Shown here: positions 12,270-39,281 of the stretch, in pieces
How positions within the stretch are numbered: position 1 is the first letter of the stretch
Layout of the letters: the number at the start of each line of letters is the position of its first letter
Source of the DNA: Mytilus edulis
Taxonomy: Eukaryota
Direction of reading: 5' to 3'
Length of the DNA: 64,000 nt
Assembly: GCF_963676685.1 (NCBI RefSeq)
Contig: NC_092351.1
Coordinates: forward strand, 40,858,001 to 40,922,000
Notes under the pieces: generated by a model
Seen by the model: the letters and a program-made list of their open reading frames with translations, nothing else
Told to the model about the DNA's origin: nothing
Databases searched by the model: none
Made by a program: the position numbers and the translations under genes

Positions 12270-12850
12270 CCATTCAAAGTCCATGAACCATGATTTGAAG
12301 ATGCAAGGCCAAAACAACCCCCATGGAAACGACAAATGTCAATGACATACAATTGCATACCATACAATTGACTTAAAATAAGGTGTTCCCTTAAAACTGT
12401 CCTAAACACAAACATTTAACATGTAAACTAATTAAAAGTTTCAAAGACAAAAGACAATGACAGAGGGAGTCCAGTCAAATAATTTCTATGGGAATGAGAA
12501 TTAAGTGTCAATGTTAATACAACTGCCTACCAGATATCATTGACCTATCACTAGTGGTTCCCTTAAACTGAATTATAAACTACTAATTTTAACATGTAAT
12601 CTAACCAAAAGTTTTAAAGACAAAAGACAATAACAGAGGAAGTATGGCTAAATAAACTTTATGGAAGTAAGATGAACCAACAGTAGCAGATACCCCACCC
12701 CCCCCCTTTTTGACGATTAATGCATTTGAATGGGGACCTGTAGTTGGAATCCCCCCTTTTTAAAATGGCTGGATCCTCCCCTGTGCCAATGTTACTACAA
12801 CTGCATATATATATATACCAGATATAGTTATTGACCTAACACTTAAGTGC
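12270..12850. mobile_element. Old Helentron-type repeat relic with a nested small MITE
   Basis: Degenerate ~180-bp repeats (caactgc.tacca.atat..ttgac.ta) resembling the 24-28 kb elements, interrupted at 12681-12783 by a reverse copy of the 9808 MITE. Confidence 0.5.
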
Positions 12851-13952
12851 TTCCCAGAATTCATTTTTCCAGTTTAAAAATTCAACCTGATATTTTGACA
12901 GATTCTCTTACGAGGATTTTGTTTGTTAATTTGATAATGATGTCAAGAATAGGCATTAAATAAAAGTCATGTAAAATAACACATATAAATTGATTTTCCT
13001 ATACATAATTACATTCTACCATATTCTTAAAGTAATTACCAATTAATCACAATAAAAATACAGAAGCATCGTTCTATTGGAAAATTACTGGTGGAGCTGT
13101 TTAATCTTTTTTGTCTCCCATTTAAATTTTTTATTCCACTGTAACCTAATTTATCATTCAAATTTCACACAGGATATCAATTATAACTTTTCACATGTCC
13201 TATATTTAGGCAATTTTTTAACAAATCTATGTTATTTTTCCTGTAACAAAATGTGACAACTTTTATAACCCTAGAATAATTTGGGAGATGGTGGTTGAAA
13301 TTCATTGGAAATTTACAAATTAAATTTGAGTTATCTCCCATTAATCATTTAATATTTTGTTTTTCATGCAACAGGTAACATATGAGGGTCTTTTCATCTT
13401 ATATTTAATGACAATATTTGATTCCATCTTTTTTACTTTATATTATGATTTATTAATTATTTTTTTTTAATGCTACACGATTAGTTTGTTAGCTGAATTA
13501 AACCAATATTCATTTGTATATATGTATATCTAAGTAGAAATAAAACAGTATAAATAAGGTACAAATATATATAGGTATTTCTTATTACCTAAAAAATAAT
13601 ATAACAGGACACATTTAAGATTTCAATTAGTTCCAGAAAACTTTTATTTTAAATTAAAATTATAAAAAGTGTACTACTGCAAGGATGATTAAAAATTGGC
13701 AGGTTAATTGTAATTTACAATATAAGAACTAATGTACTCATTAGACCTGACCCCCTGCCAGCTCACACTGTCATGTTTAGATTTTTGACCTTTTTGGTTT
13801 ACTATCTCAAATGTTTTATGACTTCTTTCCTGTTCTGATTGTTTGAAGTCAAATGGTGTTAAATACTACATGTATATATTAAAACAGACATCTGCATATT
13901 TTGTGTTAGGTTCCCTGTAGTTTTTCTTTCAAATTTGGGATGTTAAAAATGC

Positions 13953-15085
13953 CTACAGGTCCATTGTATTTAAGTCATGTTCACCATATAGTTCCCTGAA
14001 GGCAATGATCTAGTTAATATCAGTGGTCAAAAAACAGCTGTGGTAGTTCAGAAATTCTCCTCAATGGATAACATCAGAGAAATCAATGGAGGGTTGCATG
14101 TCAAGATGGGAAAGACCTGGCAATTCAAGTCTAACTTTGTGTTTGAGGTTCTCCATCAAGTTTCAAATAAACGGGAGGCTGTGTATATAGTGAAATTGAC
14201 AAGGAGCGATGGAGTTAGTGGGTAAGGACTTTTTTATGTCTTCTTTTTGAACTCCTTTCATCATGTTCATGTATGTCAGCTTTTTCTGTCAATTTGAGAG
14301 ATTCAAAAGAGGTCTTTCCATTAACTCTGTAAAAAATGTATGATGGAAAAAATATATATAACATACTGTCATGATTGTAGGAAAAGAAAAAAACATATTC
14401 ATACTTGTTTCCTATATGTATCTCCTGGCAGAAAACTTTAGGTCAAGATCTCTGTCTGATTTAATGAACAATAATTTTATTCTTTTGTATATATTTATTG
14501 TGTTAGGGTAGGCATAGACATGACAGATGAAATTGATATTACATCTATCATGTCTATGCCTATACCCTATGAGGAAGGCATCATCAGAAATTAAGGATAG
14601 GCAAGGAAGCAGTAAATTAACAGTATTTTAAGCAAAAACAGTAAAAATAAGGAATTGCCCCGTTGTCCAGAAATTTTTCAGTATTTACGCAAAAAGAGTT
14701 AAATAAGGAGGAGGTTGTCCAGAAATATTCACTTAATTTTATTCACATTTTTGAGGGTTGATGTATACATTTTTTTCTCTCAACTAAATGTGTATTTTTA
14801 AAATATATGAGGTATTGGATATTTTTTAAGCATTCTTTAACCAGTTCAGCATTTTGCAGGATTGTTGATTTGAGGCTGTTTAAACTTTCCTAAAATAAAC
14901 ATGCACTGCGCAGTAAATGCTAATTATTTGCATGAAAGTTAGAATTAGTGAACATGGTGAAAGGGACTGGTAGTTTTCCGTTTTATTGCTTCTAATTGTC
15001 TCATTGTTAAACAACAGCTTGGGTAATTTAAGGGCTTTGTTGTTTCTTATGAAGTTTTTGAAGAATAAAACATCAATAACTCTAC
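13953..15085 (-). pseudogene. Spliced, decayed protein-coding gene of unknown family (exons ~15085-14960, ~14889-14800, 14455-14405, 14326-13953)
   Basis: Four AG acceptors with pyrimidine tracts. The 14455-14405 exon (GT donor) joins the 14326 exon in phase: RDLDLKFSARRYI*ETKLMERPLLNLSN*QKKLTYMNMMKGVQKEDIKKSLP...AFRELYGEHDLNTMDL*, with scattered TGA/TAG stops. Donors of the first two exons are uncertain. Confidence 0.45.
14504..14569. other. Near-perfect hairpin/palindrome (~25-bp stem)
   Basis: tagggtaggcatagacatgacagatg ... catctatcatgtctatgcctatacccta. Confidence 0.85.
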
Positions 15086-15668
15086 CTGTAAGACTGTTGA
15101 GATAAAAAAAATAACACATATTAACTATTAATTAATTAAATCTCAGAATAACTATGGACACCTTTTATGAAATTACGACAGTATACTAACACAGCACCAA
15201 TAAATTTTCCATCACACGAATGCGAAGCAAGACATCTCGGCACATTACAAACTCGGGACATGTCAACTCGGCATAGTGCAATCTCGGCACATTACAAACT
15301 CGGCATATTACAAACTCGGTACATTCATAACGGTCGTATAATAAAAATGTATCAGATGTATTATTGTGCCAATAAAGACTTATTTTCATTTAATTTGAAA
15401 TTTAGTACTTAGTAAAATATATGAACAATTTATAAATGGCTTAGCAAAAACGGTATATTTTATGGTTTTCATAATTATGTCCATAATGTCTGAAAAAGGT
15501 AGATTACAATCACTTCTATCTTCATTTGATAGTATGGAGCTTACTGTACCTTTCATTAAAAAAAGTTGCACTATTAAAGGAGAGGAGACAAAAAACCTGC
15601 ATGAATAATACTGTTATATACTACTTTATATAGTAATGTTTAATTTGTTATGATTTCTGCATATGAGA

Positions 15669-15839
15669 GAGGGGGGATAGGACCTTTATTGGGACTCCGG
15701 GATCGGGTGTTTTAAAACTCTGGATTTCGGGATTGATCCTTTCGGGATCCAGAAATTCTTTTTTTCGAATTTCGGAACCTCAGGATTTTATGTTTTTAAG
15801 CCCGGGATTTCGGGATCAGGACCCCTCCTATCCCCCCTC
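15669..15839. mobile_element. MITE with 6-bp TSD
   Basis: Perfect TIR gaggggggatagga / tcctatcccccctc, ATGAGA on both flanks, internal ttcgggat repeats. Confidence 0.8.
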
Positions 15840-16006
15840 ATGAGACAATATCTGAAAAAGTCTAATTTTTGAAAATAAAAAAAAAACAATTTTTTTTTTT
15901 TAGACCCAGTATTTTAATAGCACAAATCGAAGAACACACATATGGGATCTAGGAACTGTTGTCTGTAATTCAAACAATTGTTTAATAAGGAAACAATGGC
16001 TATTTT

Positions 16007-18322
16007 AACTAGAGGCTCTAAAGAGCCTGTGTCGCTCACCTTGGTCTATGTGAATATTAAACAAAGGACGCAGATTGATTCATGACAAAATTGTGTTTTG
16101 GTGATGGTGATGTGTTTGTACATCTTAATTTACTGAATATTCTAGTTGCTTACAATTATCTCTATCTATAATTAACTTGGCCCAGTAGTTTCAGAGGAGA
16201 AGATTTTTGTAAAACATTACTACGATTTACGAAAAATGGTTAAAAATTGACTATAAAGGGCAATAACTCCTAAATGGGTCAACTGACCATTTCAGTCATG
16301 TTGACTTATTCGTAAATCTTACTTTGCTGAACATTATTGCTGTTTACAGTTTATCTCTATCTATAATAATATTCAAGATAATAACCAAAAACAGCAAAAT
16401 TTCCTTATAATTACCAATTCAGGGGCAGCAACCCAACAATGGGTTGTCCAATTCAACTGAAAATTTCAGGGTAGATAGATCTTTACCTGATGAACAATTT
16501 AACACAGTGTCAGATTTGCTCTAAATGCTTTGGTTTTTGAGTTATAAGCCAAAAACTGCATTTTACCCCTATGTTCTATTTTAAGCTGTTGCGGCCATCT
16601 TGGTTGGGTGGGTGGGTCACGCCACACATTTTTTAAACTAGATACCCAAATGATAGTTGTGGCCAAGTTTGGTTTAATTTGGCCCAGTTGTTTCAGAGGA
16701 GAAGATTTTTGTAAAAGATTACTAAGATTTACGAAAAATGGTTAAAAATTGACTATAAAGGGCAATAACTCTTAAACAGGTCAACTGACCATTTCGGTCA
16801 TGTTGACTTATTTGTAAATCTTACTTTGCTGAACATTATTGCTGTTTACAGTTTATCTCTATCTATAATAATATTCAAGATAATAACCAAAAACAGCAAA
16901 ATTTCCTTAAAATTACCAATTCAGGGGCAGCAACCCAACAACGGGTTGTCCAATTCATCTGAAAATTTCAGGGCAGATAAATCTTGACCTGATGAACAAT
17001 TTTACTCATGTCAGATTTGCTCTAAATGCTTTGGTTTTTGAGTTATAAGCCAAAAACTGCATTTTACCCCTATGTTCTATTTTAAGCTGTTGTGTTCATC
17101 TTGGTTGGGCGGGTGGGTCACGCCACACATTTTTTAAACTAGATACCCAAATGATAGTTGTGGCCAAGTTTGGTTTAATTTGGCCCAGTTGTTTCAGAGG
17201 AGAAGATTTTTGTAAAAGATTACTAAGATTTACGAAAAATGGTTAAAAATTGACTATAAAGGGCAATAACTCCTAAAGGGGTCAACTGACCATTTCGGTC
17301 ATGTAGACTTATTTGTTAATCTTACTTTGCTTAACATTATTGCTGTTTACAGTTTATCTCTATCTATAATAATGTTCAAGATAATAACCAAGAACAGCAA
17401 AATTTCCTTAAAATTACCAGTTCAGGGGCAGCAACCCAACATCAGGTTGTCCGATTCATCTGAAAATTTCAGGGCAGATAGATCTTGACCCTATAAACAA
17501 TTTTACCTTAGTCAGATTTGCTCTAAATGCTTTAGTTTTTGAGTTATAAGCCAAAAACTGCATTTTACCCCTATGTTCTATTTTTAGCCGTGGTGGCCAT
17601 CTTGGTTAGTTGGCCGGGTCACCGGACACATTTTTTAAACAAGATACCCCAATGATGATTGTGGCCAAGTTTGGTTTAATTTGGCCCAGTAGTTTCAGAG
17701 GAGAAGATTTTTCTAAAAGATAACTAAGATTTACGAAAAATGGTTAAAAATTGACTATAAAGGGCAATAACTCCTAAAGGGGTCAACTGACCATTTGGGT
17801 CAGGTTGACTTATTTGTAAATCTTACTTTGCTGAACATTATTGCTGTTTACAGTTTATCTCTATCTATAATAATATTCAAGATAATAACCAAAAACAGTA
17901 AAATTTCCTTAAAATTACCAATTCAGGGGCAGCAACCCAACAACGGGTTGTCCGATTCATCTGAAAATTTCAGGGCAGATAGATCTTGACCTGATGAACA
18001 ATTTTACCCCATGTCAGATTTGCTCTAAATGCTTTGGTTTTTGAGTTATAAGCCAAAAACTGCATTTTACCCCTATGTTCTATTTTTAGCCATGGCGGCC
18101 ATCTTGGTTGGTTGACCGGGTCACCAGACACATTTTTTAAACTAGATACCCCAATGATGATTGTGGCCAAGTTTGGTTAAATTTGGCCCAGTAGTTTCAG
18201 AGGAGAAGATTTTTGTAAAAGTTAACGACGCCAGACGACGGACGACAGACGACGGACGACGGACGCCGGACGCCAAGTGCTGAGAAAAGCTCACTTGGCC
18301 CTTTGGGCCAGGTGAGCTAAAA
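16007..18322 (-). mobile_element. Helentron/HINE-type non-autonomous element with ~4 x 501-bp internal tandem repeats
   Basis: One end has aactagaggctctaaagagcct with subTIR gctcacc. cagaggagaagattttt recurs at 16192, 16694, 17195, 17696 and 18198. The other end has a (gacg)-rich microsatellite and the palindrome tcacttggccctttgggccaggtgagc, in an A/T run. Confidence 0.85.
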
Positions 18323-20139
18323 ATGGTACAAAAAAATCCAGTTCTTTCCAAAGTGAATCAATTTTAAAAAGTTTCTAATGGGAATAAGGAATAAGTTTAA
18401 GACAATATTTGTGGTTTACTAGTATATCCTGCAATAGTTTTTCAAATGCCAATTATTGATTTTAGCATTTGCAATACAAAAGGTTTAGAAATATACTTAA
18501 ATATAGTCAGATATGTCGGTAACATGAAAGAATCTTGAGTAACAGCACAACGGTAACAGGACAGAGTTGGTAACAGAAAGGATTTTTCTGCTTTATTTTA
18601 AAGTTTAAGAAAAATACATAATTTTAAATTGGTCACAATAGGAAGATAACAGCAAACAATGTCATTTATCCTTTGAAACTGTATTTGCAAGATGAAAAAT
18701 CTGCCTAGGTAATGAAAAATTCTAAAATAAATTCCTTTCTGTTTCTTAATATACAATGTACTGTATATTATTTTGAAATTTATTTAATATGGTGGTGATA
18801 ACTTATATTAAATGAAATGGTTGGCATATAGTAGATTAACTTTTCGATTCTTCAGTGAAATTGTCTTGAACATCCTTCCTGTTACTGATGATGGTTATGC
18901 TGTTACTTTTTATCAGGTAACATGACAGAACGTAACAGAAAGGAATTACGCGATAGTTTTTGTCCTTTTTATCACATTAAATGTAAGTGTATTTCCTGTG
19001 ACATATAACTTTTAAAAAGATGATATAAAAACACACTTAATGCTGTGGTGCACACTTAAAAATATTCTCAGAAAGTGTAAGAAAAGGCTGTAACAGGATA
19101 GAACACCAATAAGTATTTTTCTATAAATTCTTACCTTGGATGGGCTTGAATTTTCAAACCTGGCCGCCTTTCCAACTATTTCTTTGTACTAATGCATTCA
19201 GTAAATGATGCTCTTCCCAATACATAATGGGAAAATAACTCTTGGTCTTGTAAACGTTTCCACAGGTAAAAAACCCAGTGGTAACAGAAGGGAAATCACC
19301 CCTGGGGACAATTTTTTTTCTCTTGAAATTTGCAAAATTTTATTACATGCTATAGTTATAATATAAAAAGACAAATTAGGGGCAAGTTTATTACATAATA
19401 TATCATATATCATGTATATGTGAGAATCGGACACCTGTTTAATTAATTTGTATTTTATTTGAATGATTTAGTTTTCAAAAAAACACAGGGGACAACATGA
19501 TTTTAGGGGGGGTTGAACATTTAAACTACATTATTTTATTGGAAGAAATATAAGAATGAGTGTTTAATTGGCAGGCCATGGTGCATTATATAATTTAGTT
19601 TATACTGAAACTTAAAATTTTCAAAAAAGATGGTTGAATAATAAAATAGTTGCTGGTGAAGTGCGGGACATGGATATTAGACTTTTTCAGATATTGTCTC
19701 ATATATATTGTTTGTGTATAGTTTATATATGCCTCCAACCCCTATGGGTATAAATGTGTATAATGAATAAATAAATATTTGTGTTTGTTTTTAATATTTT
19801 TACGGTGAAATTTAAAATAAAATTTGTTATTTTTTTCATCGTAATTATTATATAAAATTTCTTTTTAAGAACCATTTCCATAAATATATTCATTGGTGTG
19901 CCGAGTATGTATACGTAATGTGCCGAGTTTGTATAGGCCGAGTTTGTACTATGCCGAGTTAAACATGTCCCGAGTTTGTAGTGTGCCGAGATGTCATGTA
20001 TTCCACGAATGTATCAAAGCCACAAAATTAACTTAAAGATTCTAGCTGCTTGATGCTTTTTAACTTGTAATGCATGATAAAATAAAATCCACCCAAAATA
20101 GAACATTTTTAGAATTATTTATATATATCAAATATTATT

Positions 20140-20259
20140 GGATGCTGATTTGACTTTAAATACAGGTGCCGATTTGAATAGATGCCGATTTAACCAGGAG
20201 ACAATTTGACTTTTTCTATGGGTGCCGATTTGACCAGGTGTGGATTTGACTTGTACCCA
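20140..20259. repeat. Orphan transposon end (repeated ggtgccgatttga motif)
   Basis: Five or six degenerate gccgatttga units ending in cttgtaccc; no partner end found. Confidence 0.5.
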
Positions 20260-20463
20260 GCTAAGATGATCGAATGTTAAGAAAGAAAATCAGACAAAAA
20301 GAAAATCACAACTCAATTTTGATATGCTTTTTTTCTTTTAATTTAAACAAAATACTAAGTAAAAAATTATTTTTGTAATTTTCATGACATGATGTTATTT
20401 CATAAGATAGTAAAAGCATAGAATGTGCACTCATTATAAGAAAAAGATTTTTTTCCTCTTCAG

Positions 20464-23400
20464 ACGAAAGGTGTTTCCATCAAAGCATTTTACCCACAGC
20501 CACAGGTGCAATTGGGTATATGATACAGATATTTTTATTTTTTGTTGATTCAAATGTTCAATCTTACTCATATAAATTTACAATAGAATGCATTATAAAC
20601 AAGGCTGAGGATCAGATTTAGGGGAGGACAGGGAACCTTCCACCCTATGAAGCTGCAAATAAGAAGGATGCATGGAATTTTTACAAGTATCATTCCAAAT
20701 GTTGATTTTCCAAGGTCATCCCCCTTCCCTCCTTATTTTCAAAATCTTGAGTCTGCACTAATAATGATATATATATACTCATGAGTAAATGTAATGAGCT
20801 TCATTCTTAAATTTCCTTTCAGAAAGGCTTCCTTCAAAACAAGTGACTTGAACAATTCAAAAAAGTTTCATGTGGCAATTAACAGCTCATTTAAACATGG
20901 AGGCCTGATGTGCTTCTTATCAAGAAGACACCTGGTTCCTCTTATGGGAAAATTGGCTAGACAGGCTAGACCCCAGGAAGAGAATAATAGAAAGCAGTTA
21001 GTATTAACTCCTGGTCTGCAGGAGGATGGAGTCCATGTGGTTTTTAATCCAGATCAGATCATAGACATCATCACAGCAACCATGGTATGCAATTTGCTAT
21101 TTCAGAATCTATTTTTTTTCTGGGTAATATTTTTAAAAAGTGCACCAAACATTGTGATTGGTTACAATGGATATTTAACCAATGATGTAAGGTCATATTC
21201 ATTTTGATATTAACAATGAAAATACCCATACTTCTTTAAATTTGAAATCAAGAAACAATTAATCTTAGAGACATGTTAGATGCACATGTATATTTACTAA
21301 ATTAATTTATTATGGTTTAAAAAAAATTTAAACTCTCCGAGATTTGCTGTTTTATATGAATCATAATTAAATAAGTACACAACTTATTGATTTCTTTTCC
21401 TACCCAATAATTTTTTTTCTAATTCGTTTAAAATAATCATTTTCATTCTGTAAAAAATATTAAATAATTCCCTTCTCCTGAAAAAAACCTGTGAAACCTG
21501 AACTATTATCGTTACAATCTTTTCCTCTGTATCAGAAAAGCTTGTGAACTCAACTGTTAACTGTTTGTGTTGTCGCTGTAAATTTAACATTTTAAGCAAA
21601 TAACAGTTGCATTATTTTGAATTTGATATATTGCAATTTCATTTAGGTTAATCCAGATAGATGTGTCTATGTTTGGCCTGACCAGAATGGAGCAGACATA
21701 GAACTACAACATATAATCAATACTCCTCCAGATATACAAATGCTCAAACAATTTCTGACAAAATCATCAACCATCTTTGACAACAACTTTGGACCTGCCA
21801 TTTTAGCATGGAGCAGCATGTATGCAATGACACTGTACAAGAAGTTCTTGAAGGAAATTGGCCATTTCAACCTGCCAGTTCTCCATGGTTTACCAGGGGT
21901 GGGCAAAACTCTTATTGCACAGTGTGGGGCCTGGTTAGTTGGATGTACCAACCTGCACTTCATGGGAAGGTAAGGGAAATAGACTAAAAAGAGTAATACT
22001 ATTATTGTTATATCAACATTGTCATTGAAAATTATGACAAAAATTACAACTAACCAATACATTTCAGGAGCATTTAACAGGGTAAGGCTTGCTAAAATGA
22101 ATCCTGATATTAACAAATTTCATTTATAGCTCTTATTTGTACATCCCTAAAAAAATGTTAAGCGCTAGAATAAACAAGTATTCGATTATTTCAATAAGGA
22201 AATTGAGAATCCATGAATCTCAACCTGCACAAATTATACAGTTTAGCATCATGTTCACATGAAAACTGATAACAAATTTCAGTAAGCCCGTTTTTATTTA
22301 ATTAATAAGTTGATTTACGGACATCAGCCCAAAAATGTTAGGTCATTTTTTAGTAGCAATAAACAAAAAAACTATGTTAATTGGACATGCTTTGATACTA
22401 TATATGCCCTTGAATTTTTACTAGATAACATTTTTGTTCGCTTTGGGGATTCCGTATATCGTCAGATTATCGGAATTCCAATGGGGACTAACTGTGCACC
22501 ACTTATTGCGGACCTCTTTTTGTATTGTTACGAGTTACAATTTATGACAAAAATAAGCAAAGACCCATCAAAACAACATCTGATAAACAAATTTAATAAT
22601 ACTTTTAGATATTTGGATGATATTTTGGCTCTCAATAATGACGACTTCAGTATGTATATTAATGAAATTTATCCTGGTGAACTTACTTTAAATAAAGCTA
22701 ATACTAACAATGACCACTGCCCTTTCCTCGATCTTGATATCTATATCACTAACGGAAAGCTGAATACTAAAATTTATGATAAAAGGGATGATTTTTCATT
22801 TCCTATCGTTAATTATCCGTTTTTAGATGGTGACGTTCCATTGTCACCATCTTACGGTGTTTATATATCTCAACTTGTACGATTCGCTCGTGTATGTAAC
22901 AATGTTTTAGATTTTAACGAGAGAAATTTATGTATTACTGAAAAATTATTACACCAGGGTTTTCGATATCACAAACTAGTCAAAACATTTACTAAATTTT
23001 ATCATCGGTATAAAGACATCATTCGTAAATATAGCTCAACATGCAGACTTTTTATACGTTCAGGTATTTCACATCCAATTTTTTATGGAAATATTCTTTA
23101 TAAAGCACAAAGGTGTCAGTATTCACCTCATAAACTTACAAAACCTTTGAATAGACTTATTAAGAAGGGATATAATTACGATACTGTTGTCAAGTCATTA
23201 AAGATTGCATATTTTGGCGTTAATATTGAGTCACTGATAAGGTCTTTGCGTCGGAACTAAACACATTTATTCTAAAAACAGTTGTTGGCATGACACGGGT
23301 TATGTTCTTCTCATATATGTTATGATGGTATGATACTAAACCCCTTACGGGAAGGATTGTGCCTGATGTTCATATGATGAAATCATAATCTTTCAGTCAG

Positions 23401-26400
23401 TTTAATTGAAGTCTGGAGCTGGCATGTCAGTTAACTGCTAGTAGTCTGTTGTTATTTATGTATTATTGTCATTTTGTTTATTTTCTTTGGTTACATCTTC
23501 TGACATCAGACTCGGACTTCTCTTGAACTGAATTTTAATGTGCGTATTGTTATGCTTTTACTTTTCTACACTGGTGTTAGAGGTATAGGGGGAGGGTTGA
23601 GATCTCACAAACATGTTTAACCCCGCCGCATTTTTTGCACCTGTCCCAAGTCAGGAGCCTCTGGCCTTTGTTAGTCTTGTATTATTTAAATTTTAGTTTC
23701 TGTGTACAATTTGGAAATTAGTATGGCGTTCATTATCACTGAACTAGTATATATTTGTTTAGGGGCCAGCTGAAGGACGCCTCCGGGTGCGGGAATTTCT
23801 CGCTACATTGAAGACCTGTTGGTGACCTTCTGCTGTTGTGTTTTTTTATTTTGGTCGGGTTGTTGTCTCTTTGACACATTCCCCATTTCCATTCTCAATT
23901 TTAAGGTAGGAGGAGGGTAAAGAAATTAATTTAAACTTGATCTTTCAAGTTTTTCTTTTTTTTACTTAATTTGGTTTATGGATATCAGCCACAGAAAATA
24001 GGGTACAAGGTTAAAAAATAATAATTTTAACTTGAAAAGACTTTAATATTTGAAGTTCTGTAAAACTTAAAAAGCCTTTTAGCTCTAATTACTATAGATC
24101 TCTAGAAATTCAACATAATTTCATGAGACAGACTGATCAACATAACAGACAAACAGAGATAATATAGTATACCCTACCTCCTTCAGAGCTTTGGTATAAC
24201 AAATGAAGATTGTCAGCTTCTCTATATAATTAGGGGAGGGGAATTGGGGTGGTCAGGGGGTGTTAAAGCAAGCAACAATTAATCCCTTATTTTATCAATC
24301 TTGTGTATAATACAAGAGTGCACACGCTGAAATGTCTCGCCTTCTATACTAATCAATGATATTATGTTGATAGTCCTAAGTATAAAGCTAAGCTTTATTA
24401 CAACTATCACATAAACTTAACATTAACCAAGATAACTAAACAAAGACCAATGAACCTTGAAAAAGAGGTCCATGTCAGATGAACCATGCCAGGCAGACAG
24501 GTACAGCTAACAATGCTTCTATACAACATACATAGTTGACACATTACTTATAGTTTAAGAAAAATAGACCAAAACACAAAAACTTAACACTGTGCAATGA
24601 ACCGTGAAAATGAGGTCACGGTTAAACAAGAGGCTGTCACAACGACAGCAAACCGGATTTATTAACATTTATTTGTGTCCTGGCAATATCACAAGAACCA
24701 TTACTGATGAATGGTGAAAGTGAAAATCGTCAATATCAAATTTGATCTCCATTTTGTCATCAGTATCAACATATTAATATTTGAACAGCTTAGATTGAAT
24801 GGTTCATGAGTAAATGCAACAACGTGAATGGGAACGCCATTTTACGATCTTTCAAGAACCATAACTTCTGAACGGTAAAAGTCAAAATCGTCATTAATAA
24901 ACTTGACCTCTATTTTGTCATCAGTAACAACATATTAAAATTTCAAAAGCTTTGGTTGAATGGTTCATGAGAAAATGCACGGACACGACGGGAAACACCA
25001 TTTTTCAATCTTTCAAGAACCATAACTCCTGAACGGTAAAAGTCAAAATCGTCATTATTGAACTTGACCTCCATTTTGTCATCAGTAACAGCATATTAAA
25101 ATTTCGGAAGCTTAGGTAGAACAGTTCATGCATAAATGCACGGACACGACTGGAAACTCCATTTTTCAATCTTTCAAGAACCATAACTCCAGAACGGTAA
25201 AAGTCAAAATCGTCATTATTGAACTTGACCTCCATTCTGTCATCAGTAACAACATATTAAAATTTGGGAAGCTGTGGTAGAACAGTTCATGCGTAAATGC
25301 ACGGACACAACTGGAAACTCCATTTTTCAATCTTTCAAGAACCATAACTCCTGAACGGTAAAAGTCAAAATCGCCATTATTGAACTTGACCTTCGTATAG
25401 TTGTCAGTAATAACATATTAAAATTTTAAAAGATTTGGTTGAACGGTTCATGAGTTAATGCACGGACAACATTTGATTGCCGCCCGCCCGCCGTACATCC
25501 CCAAATCAATAACCGACATTTTTGTCACAAAAATCCGGTTAATAAAACCTGCTCGACTGACATAAAGATCATAAAATTTTTCCATACACCAAATATAGTT
25601 GACCTATGGCATATAGCATTAGATAAAAAGACCAAAACTCAAAAACTTAACTTTGACCACTGAACCATGAAAATGAGGTCAAGGTCACATGACATCTGCC
25701 CGCTAGACATGTACACTTAACAATCATTCCATACAACAAATATAGTAGACCTATTGCATATGGTATGAGAAAAACAGACCAAAACACAAAAATTTAACTA
25801 CAACCACTGAACCATGAAAATGAGGTCAAGGTCAGATGACACCTGCCAGTTGGACATGTACACCTTCCATACACCGAATATACTAGCCCTATTGCTTATA
25901 GTATCTGAGATATGGACTTGACCACCAAAACTTAACCTTGTTCACTGATCCATGAAATGAGGTCGAGGTCAAGTGAAAACTGTCTGACAGACACAAGGAC
26001 CTTGCAAGGTACGCACATATCAAATATAGTTATCCTATTACTTATAATAAGAGAAAATTCAACATTACAAAAAATTTGAACTTTTTTTTGAAGTGGTCAC
26101 TGAACCATGAAAATGAGGTCAAGGACATTGGACATGTGACTGACGGAAACTTCGTAACATGAAGCATCTATATACAAAGTATGAAGCATCCAGGTCTTCC
26201 ACCTTCTAAAATATAAAGCTTTTAAGAAGTGAGCTAACACCGCCGCCGCCGCCGTAGCCGCCGCCGGATCACTATCCCTATGTCGAGCTTTCTGCAACAA
26301 AAGTTGCAGGCTCGACAATATTAAAGTATAAATGAAACATGGTACACTTTGTAATTCACAGGTGCCCCTATGCCTTTTTGACAGACTACATGGCAGGCAG

Positions 26401-29400
26401 TAGTCTCCCCTTTGTTTGGGACCATACAACAAAGAGTAAAGAGGTTGCTCGGATACCTAATGATGTGGCAAATGGGCATTCAGTAAGTCAAATTATCATA
26501 GATGTATAAAAATAAAGAGATGTTTTATGATTGCCAATGTGACATCTATCCACCAAAGTTCAAATGAAGTGGATAAAAGCAAGCATATACTCAGAATTTT
26601 TTATTTTCATTGGTACCATATTACAGGACTTACAAGAATACATTTTCAGCTTTGTTATATATTAACATTTATCACTATTTTAAGAGATTTTCTTTTGATC
26701 TTACTGACTGATAATTTCCTTTCACAGCACAGTAAAGTGATATGAAAAATTATTGCTAGAAACTAAGGGCTCACGTAAAAAAGCCATAAACAGATTATCA
26801 TTGGGTATCTTAACTTAGTTGCTTTTCTCACTTTCAGCATTAACGATTCAAGCGAGAAAATCAATCTCGTTGAGATGATCAACAATAATCTATATAAAGT
26901 AAAATATATATGTAAAGCAATTTTGGAACATATAAGAAAGATTTATATATTTTATATCAAAGAAATTGTACAAATATTGTTTTATCCTTCATATTTACAA
27001 ACTGCACTTGAAGCTTTAGTTTATATGCAGACTACAAAGAGGAACCCTACATGAACTGGAGGCAATAATATATGTACTATTTCTAATGTTTATGGGGATT
27101 ATTATACAACCCTATATTATCATGTATACATGCTGTTTGAATGTGAAATTGTTTTCCAAAGTCATTTATCTCAATGGAAAACCAGACTTGATAATTTGCT
27201 GATTTGCTGCTTCACTTAGCACACAACATTCCTGTATAAGTCTTCTTGGATTCAAAATAATGTGTCCAAGTAGGAGGAAATTTCTTAATGATAACTTGTA
27301 CTTACCAATTAGGTATATCATTAAACATCTGGCTCATGGGGTTATCTAGTACAAAGTCAGGGTTTACATTCAAATTATACATTATTCTTGTTAATATGTC
27401 CTTGTTCTGACATTCATGTGTTTATTAATTGTAATTGGAAATTAAACAACAATCCATTTCCTGACATCACCATGATCATCATAATCAAAAGGTTTCAATA
27501 CTGTCAGGGATAGAACTTAAGACTTTGGCAATAATAGCTCACATCTTAAATTTTGTAGCCCCACATGTACATATGTCACATATAAAGTCCTATACCAGAA
27601 GCAGAAATTTCAGTAGCCCACACCAAATTTTAGGGGCCATTATCCTGTGGGCCCCTGCTAATTTCATACCCTGACCTCTAATTAATAATGGAGTCAAACT
27701 AATAGTTCACTAGTAATAATAATAATAAAAACAAGAGTGCACACGCTGAAATGTCTCGCCTTCTATACTAATCATTGATATTATGTTGATAGTCCTATAC
27801 TAATCATTGATATTATGTTGATAGTCCTAAGTATAAAGCTAAGATTTAATACAACTGTCACATAAACTTAACATTAACCAAGATAACTAAACAAAGACCA
27901 ATGAACCTTGAAAATGAGGTCAAGGTCAGATTAACCATGCCAGGCAGACATGTACAGCTAACAATGCTTCTATACAACATATATATAGTTGACCTATTAC
28001 TTATAGTTTTAAGAAAAATAGACCAAAACACAAAAACTTAACACTGTGCAATGTACCGTGAAAATGAGGTCACGGTCAAATAAAACCTGTGCGACTAACA
28101 TAAAGATCATAAAATATTTCCATACACTAAATATAGATGACCTATGGCATATAGTATTAGATAAAAAGACCAACTCAAAAACTTAACTTTGACCACTGAA
28201 CCATGAAAATGAGGTCAAGGTCACATGACATCTGCCCACTAGATAGGTACACCTTACAATCATTCCATACAACAAATATAGTAGACCTATTGTATATACT
28301 ATGAGAAAAACAGACCAAAACACAAAAATTTAACTATAACCACTGAACCATGAAAATGAGGTCAAGGTCAGATGACACCTGCCAGTCGGACATGTACACC
28401 TTACAGTCCTTCTATACACCGAATATACTAGCCCTATTGCTTGTAGTATCTGAGATACATGAGATATGGACTTGACCACCAAAAACTTAACCTTGTTCAC
28501 TGATCCATGAAATGAGGTTGAGGTCAAGTGAAAACTGTCTGACAGACATGAGGACCTTTCAAGGTATGCACATATCAAATATAGTTATCCTATTACTTAT
28601 AATAAGAGAGAATTCAACATTACAAAAAATCTGAAATTTTTTTTGAAGTGGTCACTGAACCATGAAAATGAGGTCAAGGACATTGGACATGTGAGTGATG
28701 GAAACTTCGTAACATGAGTCATCTATATACAAAGTATGAAGCATCCAGGTCTTCCACCTTCTAAAATATAAAGCTTTTAAGAAGTTAGCTAACACGGCCG
28801 CCGCCGCCGTAGCTGACGCCGCCGGATCACTATCCCTATGTCGAGCTTTCTGCAACAAAAGTTGCAGGCTCGACAAAAACTACTATGACACAAAATTATA
28901 ATACAAAAGTCAAAAGGAAGAAAAATGATTATTTAGACTGGTACAATAAACCCTCATCATAAACCTTGATTTATTTGTTTGTGGATACCAATTTTTGTGA
29001 ATTGAGGAAAACTTGTGTTTTGTCATTTCCAAGGTAACATTTAATCCACGAAAATGGATATCCAACAAATAATAATGAATCCACAGAAATTCATTTTAAC
29101 TTTCACATTTCTGGCAAGAAGCATAACAAATTGTTATCTATTTAGTTGTTTTTTTTAAAGAGAAATTAAAGGTGTTATATTCATAATATGTTTAAACTTT
29201 ATTTCAGTTTGGTACAGGATCTGTCAAAAAACTTTTGACTGGTTGCCTTGTTACAGCAAACTTTGATGTATCAAAACTTAGCAAGTAAGAAAAATAATAT
29301 CATTGCCTCACCCCCACCCCATCGATCAAATGCTACTAAATTGACCTTTAAATTGTTTTCACTATTTGCTAAACAACAAAAAATCAGACACATTTTCATT

Positions 29401-30728
29401 ACATAACAATAATTGTAAAAATTGTAGGGATACATTTATTACTTTAAAAAAAGTATTAATAATAGTATTTCCAGGATATCAGATACCTTAATATACTCTC
29501 AAAATTATGTGAGAACTGTTTTAAAATGTAAATGTTATAAAATCCAAACATTAAAAAGTAAATTTCTGGATGCATTAAGTGAAAAAGTAAATGATACCAA
29601 TATGCCAACCTAATATGACCTTATCATTGATATTTGCCTCATACTAATATTACTTAATACTTATCAACATGATCAATGATTATATTCAGATCTTTTAAGC
29701 AACTGGTAGTATTTCCATTGAACACACTGAACAGAGAAAAACAACCTGGTGAAGGGATACATGTACAAGATTTAGCCCGTAATGCATCCTCTGGTCTACC
29801 TGTTGTCATGTCTGCACTGAACAGTATCAAACTTGAAGACATTGAACAAGAAGTGGCAAGACTTCCTGATATTAATGGAGACAACAAGGTACAAATAGGC
29901 ATAGCTGTTCCTATACTGGTTGCCAGAATTGTAAGTTATTTCAAAAAAAATAAAGGGTGCAAAGAGGGAAAAAAACTGAAAGTAGATAGATTAACAGGTC
30001 TTGCTCCTTTTTTTTTTTAAAGCAATGACTAGAGGCTCCTAGGACAATTTAGGAGTCATACCTGCTGAACTACAGTTGAAAAATGTATCTTGCCCAAATA
30101 TGTCATAGCTTGACATAGCAAAACAATATAATTTCACATTAGCATCATCATTACCTCAACTAAAGTATTTAAATGTTTTTTTTATACTCAGTTTAATTAA
30201 AAGTGAACACAAATAAAAACGTTTACTTAAAACAAAGTTTTGTTACTGGAACAAATCAGACATGATCAAACTTACAAATAAAGTTAATTCAGAAGTATTA
30301 CAAAATTCTTCATGTAAAAAATTATTGGATGTTAAAATTGACAGCACATTTTGCTGTAAAAAAACAAATTGATCAGGTTTATATCATTAAGATTATACAT
30401 GTACCTTTTTCCTAAAATATTTAGTTTAATTAGAATAGATATTTGTACTAGGAAAACATATTTTAATGAGTACGTTCTGACTTCTGCTGAAAAGATATTA
30501 TAAACAAGAATATGAAAACTTGCAAAAAGTGCAACAAGAGTAATTATTATTTGCTAAATTTACCCTCTTAAAATAAAGATTTTGAATTTATCATAATTAT
30601 CATTGTTATTTTTTAATCTACAGATACTGAATTTATGTGGATGTAACCATTTCATGTCGGATGCTGATCAGTATGTACAGGAGAAGTTGATACCTTATTA
30701 CAGAGATGTACTACCACAGAATCCCTAG
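20464..30728 (+). CDS. Spliced SF3/DUF927-like P-loop ATPase (replicative-helicase type), 5'-truncated, possibly decaying; exons 20464-20515 (tentative), 20823-21084, 21647-21969, 26362-26482, 29208-29284, 29690-29930, 30624-30728
   Basis: All introns are GT-AG and the phases join without stops (~390 aa). Walker A LPVLHGLPGVGKT; Walker B-like SSLPFVWDH ~40 aa later; motif C/sensor-1 GCLVTAN; then KSFKQLVVFPL where an Arg finger is expected. PGLQEDG..VFN upstream resembles the DUF927 GWQ.DG motif. No start exon found. Confidence 0.75.
22310..23260 (+). CDS. Reverse transcriptase C-terminal fragment (Penelope-like)
   Basis: Uninterrupted RT core and thumb, YLDD catalytic motif. The first ~9 codons are probably flanking DNA. 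Confidence 0.85.
   Translation: MIYGHQPKNVRSFFSSNKQKNYVNWTCFDTIYALEFLLDNIFVRFGDSVYRQIIGIPMGTNCAPLIADLFLYCYELQFMTKISKDPSKQHLINKFNNTFRYLDDILALNNDDFSMYINEIYPGELTLNKANTNNDHCPFLDLDIYITNGKLNTKIYDKRDDFSFPIVNYPFLDGDVPLSPSYGVYISQLVRFARVCNNVLDFNERNLCITEKLLHQGFRYHKLVKTFTKFYHRYKDIIRKYSSTCRLFIRSGISHPIFYGNILYKAQRCQYSPHKLTKPLNRLIKKGYNYDTVVKSLKIAYFGVNIESLIRSLRRN
22338..23903 (+). mobile_element. 5'-truncated Penelope-like retroelement (C-terminal RT, Naiad-like) with 3' UTR, in an intron of the ATPase gene
   Basis: ORF 22310-23260 carries GIPMGTNCAP, FRYLDD, FLDL and YDKRDDFSFPIVNYPFLDGDVPLSPSYGVYISQLVRFARVC, and ends without a GIY-YIG. The ~640-nt tail is repeated at 40.2-40.9 kb. Confidence 0.85.
24312..26318 (-). 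mobile_element. Helentron/HINE-type element (family 2), copy 1, with a nested insertion
   Basis: acaagagtgcacacgctgaaatgtctcgcc end, internal tgaaccatgaaaatgaggtcaagg repeats, (gcc)n microsatellite, terminal palindrome gtcgagctttctgcaacaaaagttgcaggctcgac. Confidence 0.85.
24625..25541 (-). mobile_element. Helentron-type element (family 3) with 161-bp internal repeats, nested in family-2 copy 1
   Basis: ctttcaagaaccataac at 24849, 25010, 25171 and 25332; subTIR aaccggattt / aaatccggtt; (cgcc) microsatellite. The empty site ggtcacggtcaaataaaacc is visible in copy 2 at ~28070. Confidence 0.85.
27730..28876 (-). mobile_element. Helentron/HINE-type element (family 2), copy 2
   Basis: Highly similar to 24312-26318 without the nested insert; has a 32-bp local duplication near 27764-27830. 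Confidence 0.85.
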
Positions 30729-31913
30729 AGGGAAAACTTTCATTACAAACATTTTGATGATACATGTAGATACTTCGAAGCAATGTATGTTGAGCACCAT
30801 GTACCACAATGACTGTTATTGAACAGTGTTAAATATATTTTAAAAATTATCAATACATTGTAGTACTTTCTTTTTGCAAGTTTTAAATATCAAGTAAATC
30901 AAGCTATCAGTTTTTTGTTTTGTTTTTCACTTTCTTCATGAACTTCAAATCCATTTCAATTTTTATGGTTTGCAGAGTTATCTTTCTTGGGAACAGATAG
31001 GTTTCTCTGCACAGTACACATATTAGGAAAAGTTCTGGATCTGCCACTGTATACATGTTATATTGTATAACTGTATTTTACTTATACATGAAATTCTTCC
31101 ATGTGAAACCTAATGTTCTTACAAATGATGACATTATCATCATACCTTGCTGTTAATGCTGTAGCAGTTAGGTCATTATTTAAAGCTTAGTGCAATAAAT
31201 TTGTCATCAATTTTTTAAAATATCATTCTTACACACAAAATTAAGAAAAACTTATCTATATGAAACCTTGTTCTTACAGATAATTAATAACATTATTGTT
31301 GTATCTTGCTGTTAAAGCTGCAGCAGTTAGGTCATAGCTAACAGCTTTAAGTGCAAAAAAATTATAATCAATTTTCATAAAGATAAAATGTTTTCTTACA
31401 TGTATATCAAATCATCCTTTTCTATTATATTTTTATATTTTTTTACAGATCATTAAATTTATGTAAATGGTAATCCCATTGAAGGTTAGATTTGACACCA
31501 TAAACATTAATTCTAAAAGTCAGGGTAGCAGCTGTTCAAAGTAGTAATAATTCAAATCTTATTTGCATGAATGACAAGTACTATATGAAGTCATAAGCCA
31601 TTGTTTCCCTTTAATGAATTTATTCCTGGATAAACTCCTTTTCTCCTATTAAATAATAGTTTTTATAATAACTGTAAAATATAGATCTTTGATCAGGTAA
31701 TTATATAAACCATGCATGGAGTCATATATTAAAACATGATAATAGATAGCAAGTCTCAAATTAGTTCATCTGTGTAAAGTTTTTTCTCTCTAATTTACTG
31801 AACATGTTTATACTTGCCTATGTCTCATTATTCACTTTGATTTATCATCTTTAGTTTTAGAACAATGTATCATTGAGTGCAGTTAAGCTGGACTTTTATT
31901 ATCATGATTATAA

Positions 31914-32030
31914 AAAAGAAGATGTGGTATGATTGCCTATGAGACAACTCTCCACAAGATACCAAAAGACACAGAAATTAACAACTATAGGTCACTGTAC
32001 GGCCTTCAACAATGAGCAAAACCCATACCA
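31914..32030. repeat. Dispersed short repeat (retroelement tail/SINE-like)
   Basis: aagaagatgtggtatgattgcc.atgagacaactctccacaag; related pieces at ~26515, ~53480 and, inverted, ~59330-59505. Confidence 0.55.
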
Positions 32031-32306
32031 CAAAACCATGATAAAGGTCATGATATCATAAGGACCTATTTAAGCCCTTTTTTCAAAGTACATTGAACCC
32101 TTTTGTAATTATTTCTAACTTTAAACTGGTTTTTTTTTGTAAACACTTACTGCTGAAATTTTTAGCAACTGATTTGACATTTTTGGGGCAGACATGGCAG
32201 AGGTCATAAAGGACCCCATAATTTAAATATTTTTATAAAAATCCCTGAAATCATACATCTAATTTTCACCAAATATAAGCTGGTCGACATGTAGCTGTTC
32301 ACTATA

Positions 32307-32465
32307 CCTAGCTTATAACTTTGGTCAAATTCATTGATCATCTGACCTAGCTTATAACTTTGGTCAAATTCACTGATCATCTGACCTAGCTTATAACTTT
32401 GGTCAAATTCACTGATCATCTGACCTAGCTTATAACTTTAGTCAAATTCACTGATCATCTGACCT
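32307..32465. repeat. 39-bp minisatellite, 4 copies
   Basis: cctagcttataactttggtcaaattcactgatcatctga x4; it generates the spurious repetitive ORF 32204-32419. Confidence 0.95.
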
Positions 32466-33443
32466 ACCTGAACACCTCAAAACTATAATTAATGTTCATG
32501 TGCTAACTATCAGCATGATCACAAATGTCAGAATATGCAAAAAGGATTTCATAAGCAGTTTTAATTTTATAACATAATGAATGGTATTGTGTTTGAATTT
32601 GGAAATCATTTCATAAGCTTACTTCATTTTTTTCAGTATATTTGTTGTGAAGACTGCCATGATACAACTAATGATACAACTAATTAACACGAGACATTAA
32701 CTACATGAGATTCAATATTTCTGACAATCCAGACCAGAACATGAGAATGAGGAGATGGAATTTTTTCTGAAAATTATTTGATTGTTTATTATAACTATCG
32801 AGAATTTGTGGTTGTTATCTGGTGTTTCATATTACTGTTGAGATATATGCAAGTGTTCTGATCAGACTTCAGACATTGTGTATATAAATATTTCACATGC
32901 AGCTCTTTATTTTTTAAAGATTTTATATCATGTAGACGAAATAAATTTATTTTAGTTATCATGGTTATATTTTTCAATGTGAAACAGCCAAGTTAGTATA
33001 AGCTTTGTTATCTATCATATTGAATGTCTTGATTCAATCAACATAAAAATATGAACAGTGAAACCTAGGTAAACCGAGCCCTGTTAAAACCGAATAATTT
33101 TCAAAGTCCCACAAAATTTCCCTATTAATTAACGTTAATCTAACCTGTAAAAACCGAACCCTGTTAACACCAAATTCCAAACGCTTTTTGGAAGCTCGCT
33201 AGTAAATATGTATTTAAAAATTACCTTTCAAAATCTATCGATAGCAATCAAAACAAAAAAGTATTTTAATTATTTGCATGATTTAAAAAACAAACACAGG
33301 ATGACAGAGTATCCCTGAGGGTATTTGAGATTTAATGAACTGGTGATTTGTTATTGCAAACTAATTAGCATGTTTGTGTCTATGTTTTCAGTGATCAAAT
33401 GACTTTTTTTTGTAAAGAAACGTTTATGACCGAAAAGGACAAG

Positions 33444-38500: not shown

Positions 38501-38574
38501 TTGCATGAACAGAAATCATAATTGTTGTCTTGCAAAAGATGAAAAATCTGCTTCAATGGTTCTTCTTTTGACAT
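35557..38574 (-). pseudogene. Pseudogenised paralog of the DD-CARD gene
   Basis: Exon 1 MSKEEPLKQIFHLLQ.. (38574-38026) has frameshifts and a TAG. Exon 2 is truncated and tandemly duplicated (37097-37392). No DD exon. The CARD exon (~36825-36560, PLLPYLISDGVMSLKMQRYVLRPKTHDQRISRLL) lacks an AG at the homologous acceptor. Last exon TGETLTQPEVPC. Confidence 0.8.
37543..37620 (-). repeat. Degenerate hammerhead-retrozyme fragment
   Basis: The reverse strand reads tcactgatgagtcttttgtagataaaacgtac, a mutated HHR core. Similar fragments at 60848-60930 and 55249-55302. Confidence 0.55.
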
Positions 38575-39281
38575 TATGTTATTGTGATATCTGTATGTAT
38601 TGTTGTGTGCTAGAAAAAGAAAAAGGAACCATGTCTTTTATTATCATATCAAGTGCCCAATGATAATTTTGAATTCATATATTGTAACAATATAGTTCAT
38701 CAACCTTATATTTGAATGTATGCTCTTTTGGTATTTGTTATATATACTCCCTAGTCGGTGTTTAAGATAGAGGTCACCGCACGGGAATTAATAATGAGGA
38801 AACAGTATTTGTTTTTCTTTTTGTTAAAAGGCCGTACAGCACCCTATTGCTGTACACACCCTTATCACATCTCATTTGAAACCCATGATGTATGGTAAGC
38901 TATATCAAAGATTGAACATATATACACTAGTATATACTGATTGACTGTGTGTTGCCTACTGTTAAGTGGCAAATGTTCAAACATGTTCAGGACGGTACAC
39001 ACTAACACTACATACAATAAGGATTTCTGTAATAGGAAAGACCGTGATAAACAGCTGACAATTTAAACTACCACTTGAAAATGAGGATTAATTGGATAGG
39101 GACAGCTATTAATCATTGCAACAGGCCACCGACAGACCTTCCAAAGAGTTGTTTCATGCAAGGGTTCTGAACATGCAGAGAGCGTGGTTCATTTGTCTTC
39201 TATATATCCTAGTGTAGAGATGATTCTAACAAAGTGTGTTTTGATGCATCTGTGTGGTGTTCACTAGTACTGTTTGTACCC

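Follow-up and report, generated by a model that had tools for sequence, protein, structure and literature searches.

The question raised by this locus of the Mytilus edulis genome is whether a helicase-like gene lying among repeats belongs to a mobile element and, if so, to one of what kind. It was examined within a 64-kb window (positions 40858001-40922000 of contig C8 of genome G000, to which contig C11 also belongs), and positions below are those of the window unless a contig is named. An original prediction had drawn, at 13740-32470, a large element consisting of two divergent spliced genes, one of an unrecognised kind on the minus strand and one for a helicase on the plus strand, with the middle of the element deleted. 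We found that the region is occupied by one plus-strand, seven-exon, single-copy mussel gene and not by two opposed genes. The reading that we cautiously favour is that this gene is an orphaned, truncated and probably ATPase-impaired remnant of an old two-gene transposon that combined a KDZ (Kyakuja-Dileera-Zisupton) transposase with a helicase. The original prediction was wrong on the anatomy, yet it leads to an apparently undescribed helicase family and to a plausible new variant of the KDZ transposons.

Structure and transcription of the gene

The seven exons (14064-30728; Table 1) are separated by six GT-AG introns and, when spliced, give an open frame of 428 aa that is exactly that of P0003, a M. 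edulis protein in the source record. The helicase had been thought to lack its 5′ exons and to start at 20464. Its coding exon 1 lies at 14064-14221, has counterparts in the relatives from oyster, ark shell and C8:33.64 Mb, and is joined directly to the start of exon 2 (14221 to 20823) in contigs from two of the four runs (X1 and X8, from two organisms and taken as RNA by guess, no run being recorded as RNA). The stretch at 20464 is skipped in both of these contigs and has no homolog, and was rejected as an exon. One X8 contig of 1504 nt carries exons 1, 2, 3, 6 and 7 in order, with a gap of 200 nt; exons 4 and 5 together measure 198 nt. In run X21, which looks stranded, minus-strand first mates over the bins of exons 2 and 3 stood at 1.31 and 0.74 against 0.12 and 0, the pattern that plus-strand RNA should give, and the depth over these exons was approximately 1×. 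The gene is weakly transcribed. A match at 6901-6971 to a model from Mytilus galloprovincialis suggests that its transcription may begin 7 kb farther upstream.

No minus-strand gene could be recognised. The minus strand of 13740-15085 is interrupted in its three frames by 34, 39 and 15 stops in 448 codons, the longest open runs are 35, 75 and 71 aa, and these frames matched nothing among 126 fetched proteins and the fetched regions, a set that had been gathered using the helicase; the plus frame matches 11 of the 126, including oyster and ark-shell proteins. The exon start proposed at 15085 falls inside a dispersed repeat (14617-15140) found at at least 39 other loci when 40 of 569 candidates were scored. 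The supposed orphan transposon end (20026-20258) belongs to a miniature inverted-repeat transposable element (MITE), of which it forms the right end and whose body lies at 14617-15222, and the approximately 600 bp seen between the two genes is this MITE, split in two. The supposed minus-strand gene is the antisense shadow of helicase exon 1 plus the split MITE, and a head-to-head pair with a deleted middle is refuted.

Nor do the proposed bounds delimit an element. Of 370 inverted-repeat pairs in 12000-33500, the 25 longest included none that convincingly bounds it. Searching at 13.7 and 32.5 kb revealed no element ends, and neither a target-site duplication (TSD) nor defined ends of the KDZ kind (7-8-bp TSD) were found at the window locus. 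Genome-wide, 12850-14500 and 32040-32900 each have one candidate, namely themselves, and 28890-31880 and 30700-32900 match elsewhere via short repeats only (40 of 981 and 40 of 3150 candidates scored, respectively). The unique parts are single-copy, and several Mytilus species each have a single close counterpart. In copy number and counterparts, these two results amount to the outcome (a region single-copy and syntenic across bivalves) that the original prediction had itself named as refuting it.

Several of the details it had listed are nevertheless real, namely the insertion at 15223-20003 (8-bp TSD at 15215-15222 and 20004-20011; terminal inverted repeats (TIRs) of ~85 bp, 88 % identical), the spliced plus-strand helicase-like gene, the downstream duplication (31098-31214 and 31255-31375, ~120 bp, 76 %) and the 39-bp array (4.1 copies at 32306-32466, 98 %). 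The insertion with its TSD, the one lone terminus and the downstream repeats speak for the large divergent element, but with a plus-strand exon 1 spliced to the helicase, a MITE in place of the minus exon, single-copy unique parts and no bounding repeats found, we regard it as scarcely credible. The broader idea of an unnamed intron-bearing mobile element survives in so far as the helicase is of a mobile-element type and has relatives linked to KDZ transposases, and fails as to the anatomy. The partner gene would be a transposase that the window lacks, not a divergent gene of unrecognised kind. The original interpretation is in this sense partly supported.

Predicted fold and catalytic motifs

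P0003 matched no family in Pfam or PHROGs. Its structural model (predicted local distance difference test 91, predicted template modelling score 0.89) matched in Foldseek the SCCmec helicase Cch (5DGK, E 9e-13) and SaPIbov1 Rep (E 7e-9). Superposition gave Z 23.5 with SaPIbov1 Rep (8TCH; root-mean-square deviation (rmsd) 3.9, 352 aligned) and Z 22.7 with Cch (rmsd 4.0, 383 aligned), residues 1-428 of the model lying on 8-442 of Cch. The next best was MCM at Z 13.1, with MCM and D5-type chains at 11-13, and the viral hits of the structure search were phage DUF927 and primase-helicase proteins. The best PDB match of a 66-sequence profile was again Cch (5DGK, 200 positions, E 3e-5), and DUF927 clusters ranked first in the Atlas (0.98), the domain being carried by 10-49 % of their members. 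The Pfam DUF927 model itself did not match P0003 and matched three relatives only under its cut-off. P0003 is thus predicted to have the Cch/SaPIbov1-Rep fold, with a DUF927-type N-terminal region and an MCM-like AAA+ core.

Published work places Cch with its relative SaPIbov1 Rep among DUF927, MCM-like helicases and describes it as a self-loading initiator, and SaPI Rep as binding iterons via its C-terminal domain (PMC7581432). The mussel protein resembles these enzymes over the whole length of its predicted fold, and its relatives, too, adjoin the gene of an element-mobilising enzyme. It differs from them in sharing only 9-13 % identity, in the six spliceosomal introns of its gene and in stopping before the C-terminal domain, to which longer bivalve members add a PHD finger; furthermore, the bivalve partner is a DDE transposase and not a Ccr recombinase, and neither a primase nor a single-stranded DNA-binding protein was seen.

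The Walker A motif is intact in the window lineage. The Walker B motif reads WDH in all three window-lineage rows against WDD in all ten others, and Gln occupies the site of residue 318 in the same three out of three against Arg in ten out of ten, rows without a recognisable pattern being excluded from these counts. The conserved Arg, which follows the sensor strand, is likely to be the arginine finger. P0003 ends near the position of Cch residue ~442, whereas a 699-aa Saccostrea protein has a further C-terminal domain and a PHD finger; a profile of the relatives' C-terminal exon found nothing in the window, and no C-terminal or PHD remnant was found in the window or in the 40 kb upstream. Given WDH, Gln318 and the missing C-terminus, its ATPase activity is probably impaired, and we class the protein as a degenerate member of the Cch-fold family and not as a working Cch.

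Relatives of the helicase

At least eight helicase-family loci are present in G000, and the family also has members in Ostrea, Saccostrea, Crassostrea, Tegillarca, Mya and Mercenaria. Further genes, 20-30 % identical, make up a second group; they have GT-AG introns and lie on eukaryote-type contigs from Logan, ENA and metagenomes, whose hosts we guess to be sponge-like. Three introns (before exon 2, after the ANF motif and before the last exon) have the same position and phase in the window gene and in two of these contigs (L047 and L049). Among bacteria, the nearest relatives are primase-helicase fusions of cyanobacteria (e.g. WP_013325793.1 on Gloeothece plasmid NC_014504.1; also Crocosphaera), with 23-29 % identity over ~250-300 aa (E 1e-8 to 1e-3); two are on plasmids, where one adjoins an integrase. 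They are the closest prokaryotic sequences and have the same motif order, but are fused to Prim-Pol and zinc-finger domains, lack introns and form a starred clade of their own. In the midpoint-rooted tree of 35 rows, one of them a composite of C11 pieces, the bivalve rows also form one starred clade. Three bivalve lineages occur in this genome (the window gene, the copy at C8:33.6 Mb and the C11 family), and their order is weakly supported.

A scan of viral contigs gave nine loci that matched in the Walker A region only (E 3e-4 to 7e-4), and P0025, among the profile matches, was rejected as a false repeat match. One metagenome contig (L053) carries a Crypton-like (QRICH1) piece and superfamily 3 (SF3)/Rep-like helicase open reading frames (ORFs) at 3344-3625 and 5836-6706, upstream of a decayed Cch-type gene. 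Another M. edulis model, P0020, contains exon 3 of the C8:33.6 Mb helicase at 100 % identity joined to transposase fragments that are absent from that region of G000, which hints at structural variation between haplotypes or at a faulty model. A search of the full-text literature, a scope outside which Repbase, most subscription journals and supplements lie, brought up neither an animal DUF927/Cch helicase nor one associated with KDZ, and the animal family is apparently undescribed.

Association with a KDZ transposase

The link to a transposase comes from other members of the family. At C8:33.616-33.625 Mb, exons with CxC5 (E 1e-9) and KDZ (E 8e-7) domains, both over the Pfam cut-offs, belong to a gene that ends 11.8 kb upstream of a helicase on the same strand; all exons of this helicase are open and it has a C-terminal extension. 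The frame of the transposase as assembled is partial, and some of its small exons were not located. At C11:5.912 Mb, a KDZ remnant is followed 14.3 kb downstream by a helicase remnant, again on the same strand, and the Ostrea model P0009 opens with two exons of this KDZ clade, 56 % and 65 % identical to those of the mussel, and continues with helicase exon 1. This clade was found at three loci in this genome, two of them with a helicase, among at least 30 KDZ matches, and its C8 and C11 copies are ~50 % apart in amino acid sequence. A helicase thus lies downstream of the clade on the same strand at two of eight family loci. By a rough estimate chance would produce such a link at 0.15 % of loci, and two in eight would have a probability of 0.006 even with tenfold clustering. 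The tree places the three linked cases to either side of the window lineage.

Between the two C11 copies of the KDZ gene, changes by codon position number 6, 8 and 43 (43 of 57 in the third), so that more than one functional copy must have existed. Two PHD exons, with 1, 1 and 9 changes, also diverged under selection, while copies of helicase exon 3 on C11 (8, 11 and 9) diverged neutrally. No KDZ sequence was found in the window or in the 40 kb upstream by tblastn and four exon profiles, and none was listed in the Pfam search.

The region C8:33616200-33646150 (L012-L015), where the CxC5-KDZ gene is followed by the same-strand Cch-type helicase and then by a 61-bp array of 57 copies, is the best candidate for an intact unit. 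Its sole inverted match is of 21-26 bp, with one arm within a common repeat. As no element ends were found, mobility is only inferred. The downstream arrays, 61-bp here and 39-bp in the window, were considered as iterons and set aside as a weak lead only: arrays with a unit of at least 25 bp and at least three copies occur in 12 of the 15 genome regions scanned, the two units have no mutual match at the thresholds used, and the domain by which iterons would be bound is missing from the window protein. In C11, 14 of 30 KDZ match rows and six of the eight helicase loci fall between 5.9 and 37 Mb, which suggests that this part is rich in elements and rearranged.

According to the available part of PMC12730594, KDZ transposons carry cargo genes (TET/JBP), Zisupton and Dileera have an 8-bp TSD, and Kyakuja has a 7-bp TSD and no TIR; helicase cargo is not mentioned there. 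The linked gene at C8:33.6 Mb resembles them in its CxC5 and KDZ domains. The window has no transposase, and we do not class it as a KDZ transposon.

Other eukaryotic transposons with a helicase are of different types. AcademH/AcademHP and KolobokH carry a RecQ-type helicase, AcademHP also having a PHD finger, and Polintons and adintoviruses encode an SF3 helicase of D5 type. The Helitron, a helicase-bearing eukaryotic DNA element, is of HUH-Pif1 type (PMC12730594). D5/E5-type chains gave Z 11-12.5 against 23 for Cch/Rep; the fold predicted for P0003 is AAA+ and Cch-type and not that of Pif1 (superfamily 1), and no HUH domain was seen. The ORF lists showed no pPolB, capsid, packaging ATPase or integrase of the kind found in Polintons and endogenous DNA viruses, although spliced remnants could be missed.

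Origin and fate of the gene

On balance we lean towards an ancestral unit that was a KDZ transposon carrying a Cch-type helicase. Its CxC5-type KDZ DDE transposase would have excised and inserted the full element, as in Zisupton, Dileera or Kyakuja. The helicase would, by analogy, have assembled as a ring, its C-terminal domain and PHD finger may have steered it to DNA or chromatin, and it could have opened DNA for copying or insertion of the element using the primase and polymerase of the host, much as Cch may do beside the Ccr recombinases of SCCmec. The window copy would have lost its transposase and C-terminus before the Mytilus species split, become fixed beside a glycosyltransferase gene and collected repeats in its introns.

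A number of observations weigh against this derivation. The KDZ-helicase pairs showed neither TIRs nor a TSD nor ends in common, and this genome has no young multicopy family. Six of the eight helicase loci, that of the window included, lack this KDZ clade in the 33-60 kb upstream, no helicase follows the third KDZ locus within 57 kb, and KDZ was found in none of seven eukaryote-type contigs, though just two of them have more than 6 kb upstream. The oyster link comes from a single automatic gene model, no primase gene was seen near any copy, and the deep bivalve branches are not well supported. Six of the eight loci consist of fragments, all on a single chromosome, whose copies of exon 3 diverged neutrally, as would fit segmental duplication. 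As for the gene itself, the splicing evidence of X1 and X8 is limited by the guess that they are RNA, expression is ~1×, and the few exon 1 reads are strand-mixed in X21, the sole stranded-looking library.

Some of these observations would sit well with an ancient host gene family that entered animals once from a bacterial plasmid or phage, gained introns and became an ordinary low-copy gene, its KDZ neighbour having been domesticated and frozen and extra copies having arisen by segmental duplication. The three intron positions and phases common to the window gene and eukaryote-type contigs, one or two copies per bivalve in our searches, oyster members that are 74-84 % identical and the failure to find element ends all agree with it, as does the CpG-depleted DNA around two of the copies: the window gene lies in a CpG-depleted stretch of ~50 kb, and the window and C8:33.6 Mb copies have CpG observed/expected ratios mostly of 0.1-0.4. 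However, three or more deep lineages occur within one mussel genome, the mussel copies are for the most part broken, the eukaryote-type contigs include many lineages that are 20-55 % identical (four sharing one assembly prefix), and the fold is otherwise known from mobile elements. We consider a host gene family rather unlikely.

The absence of KDZ alongside the helicase in all seven eukaryote-type contigs could also mean that the helicase served to replicate a different, unrecognised element, either a large or an endogenous virus-like one, and that its link with KDZ is an accident specific to bivalves. The Crypton-like piece and SF3-type ORFs of L053 would fit, as would the bacterial relatives, which are primase-helicase fusions, one beside a plasmid integrase. 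Yet inspection by eye of the ORF lists of some mussel regions showed no capsid, polymerase, primase or recombinase gene, the viral-contig scan reached only Walker-A-level matches, and PHROGs returned nothing for five of five animal-type proteins. An origin of this kind appears improbable.

The preferred derivation, from a KDZ-plus-helicase transposon, leaves the present state of the window gene to be considered. Its counterparts in three Mytilus species are 94-96 % identical, with 19/424 and 21/428 differences in M. galloprovincialis, 16/410 in a second M. edulis model and 19/314 in M. trossulus; the M. coruscus counterpart has 38/181 and an apparent frame shift near its end. Such divergence is high for close mussels and suggests weak constraint. 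We incline slightly to slow decay of the gene; its retention as a non-catalytic DNA-binding or element-damping protein is a somewhat less probable outcome.

In bacteria, helicases of the Cch/SaPI-Rep kind occur on mobile islands, plasmids and phages, and here one is found as a spliced animal gene with bivalve-wide relatives. If the KDZ link is true, eukaryotic DNA transposons would gain a fourth class of helicase, the poorly understood KDZ group would gain a replication-type partner, and animal genomes would harbour an MCM-like enzyme of prokaryotic replicons, a case that lends itself to testing. The window copy would be a fixed, degenerate relic, and the paralog at C8:33.616-33.646 Mb, with open exons in both genes, is the more informative. 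A bolder scheme, which we think unlikely, is an undescribed animal lineage of large, intron-rich and possibly self-copying transposons in which a KDZ DDE transposase was joined by a Cch-type (MCM-like) initiator helicase that a cyanobacterial plasmid had supplied. Such transposons would be the eukaryotic counterpart of SCCmec, and the window gene would be a domesticated pseudo-helicase derived from them, kept and still spliced by Mytilus.

Nested repeats and neighbouring genes

Table 1. Exons of the helicase gene and repeats at the locus (window coordinates)
Feature	Position	Strand	Remarks
Alternative upstream first exon	6901-6971	+	Match to one M. galloprovincialis model (P0005)
Exon 1	14064-14221	+	ATG at 14064; GT donor at end; transcribed sequence extends to at least 13985
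Exon-like stretch	20464-20515	+	Splice sites plausible; bypassed in both contigs; no homolog
Exon 2	20823-21084	+	N-terminal DUF927-like domain
Exon 3	21647-21969	+	Intact Walker A GLPGVGKT, residues 221-228
Exon 4	26362-26482	+	Altered Walker B, WDH vs WDD of relatives
Exon 5	29208-29284	+	LVTANF motif
Exon 6	29690-29930	+	Gln318 at conserved Arg site of relatives (likely arginine finger)
Exon 7	30624-30728	+	Stop codon; protein stops short of C-terminal domain and PHD finger of longer relatives
MITE body	14617-15222		Intron 1; ~1-kb non-autonomous TIR element, left terminus lost
Nested insertion, 4.8 kb	15223-20003		~85-bp TIRs, 8-bp TSD
MITE right part and right terminus	20012-20258		The 'orphan end'; whole copies elsewhere with 8-bp TSDs
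5′-truncated reverse-transcriptase retroelement	22286-23905	+	Intron 3; Pfam RVT_1 only at E 0.06
Tandem-repeat interspersed element	24312-26318		Intron 3; same family as 27731-28876
Tandem-repeat interspersed element	27731-28876		Intron 4
Old local duplication	31098-31375		~120 bp, 76 %; no further copy among scored candidates
39-bp tandem array	32306-32466		4.1 copies; confined to this locus

Repeats in the introns account for ~10.7 of the 18.7 kb that had been flagged as an element. The right piece of the MITE (20026-20258) is dispersed in the same way as 14617-15140 (40 of 779 candidates scored), and the two pieces are contiguous in five of nine other copies fetched, which indicates that the 4.8-kb insertion landed in an older MITE within intron 1. 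Whole copies are ~0.9-1.1 kb long, with 8-bp TSDs in four of the six shown (L086, L089 and L091/L092; two are probably the same locus). Neither the lost left end nor a TSD partner was found in the 60 kb upstream. Termini of this 8-bp-TSD type were considered as ends of the KDZ-helicase unit and rejected, their subterminal motifs not flanking the pairs at C8:33.6 or C11:5.9 Mb. Within the insertion are a second TIR pair (15840-15866 and 19676-19702) and a tandem-repeat element with four copies of a 501-bp unit (16007-18322). The MITE (14617-20258) and the insertion nested in it (15223-20003) represent two TIR families that are related and that both have 8-bp TSDs and short subterminal repeats. 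The retroelement in intron 3 is presumably of Penelope type.

Head-to-head with the helicase gene, an intact single-exon ORF for a family 2 glycosyltransferase (PF13632, E 8e-34), which we take to be egghead-like, occupies 217-1611 on the minus strand. Two decayed, related copies of a CARD-domain gene (PF00619, E 2e-6 and 0.018) lie on the minus strand at 36500-38600 and 46900-53200. Outside the window, C8:40835700-40837750 (L044) holds two consecutive long ORFs of 479 and 214 aa that presumably resemble a Mab-21/cGAS-like gene.

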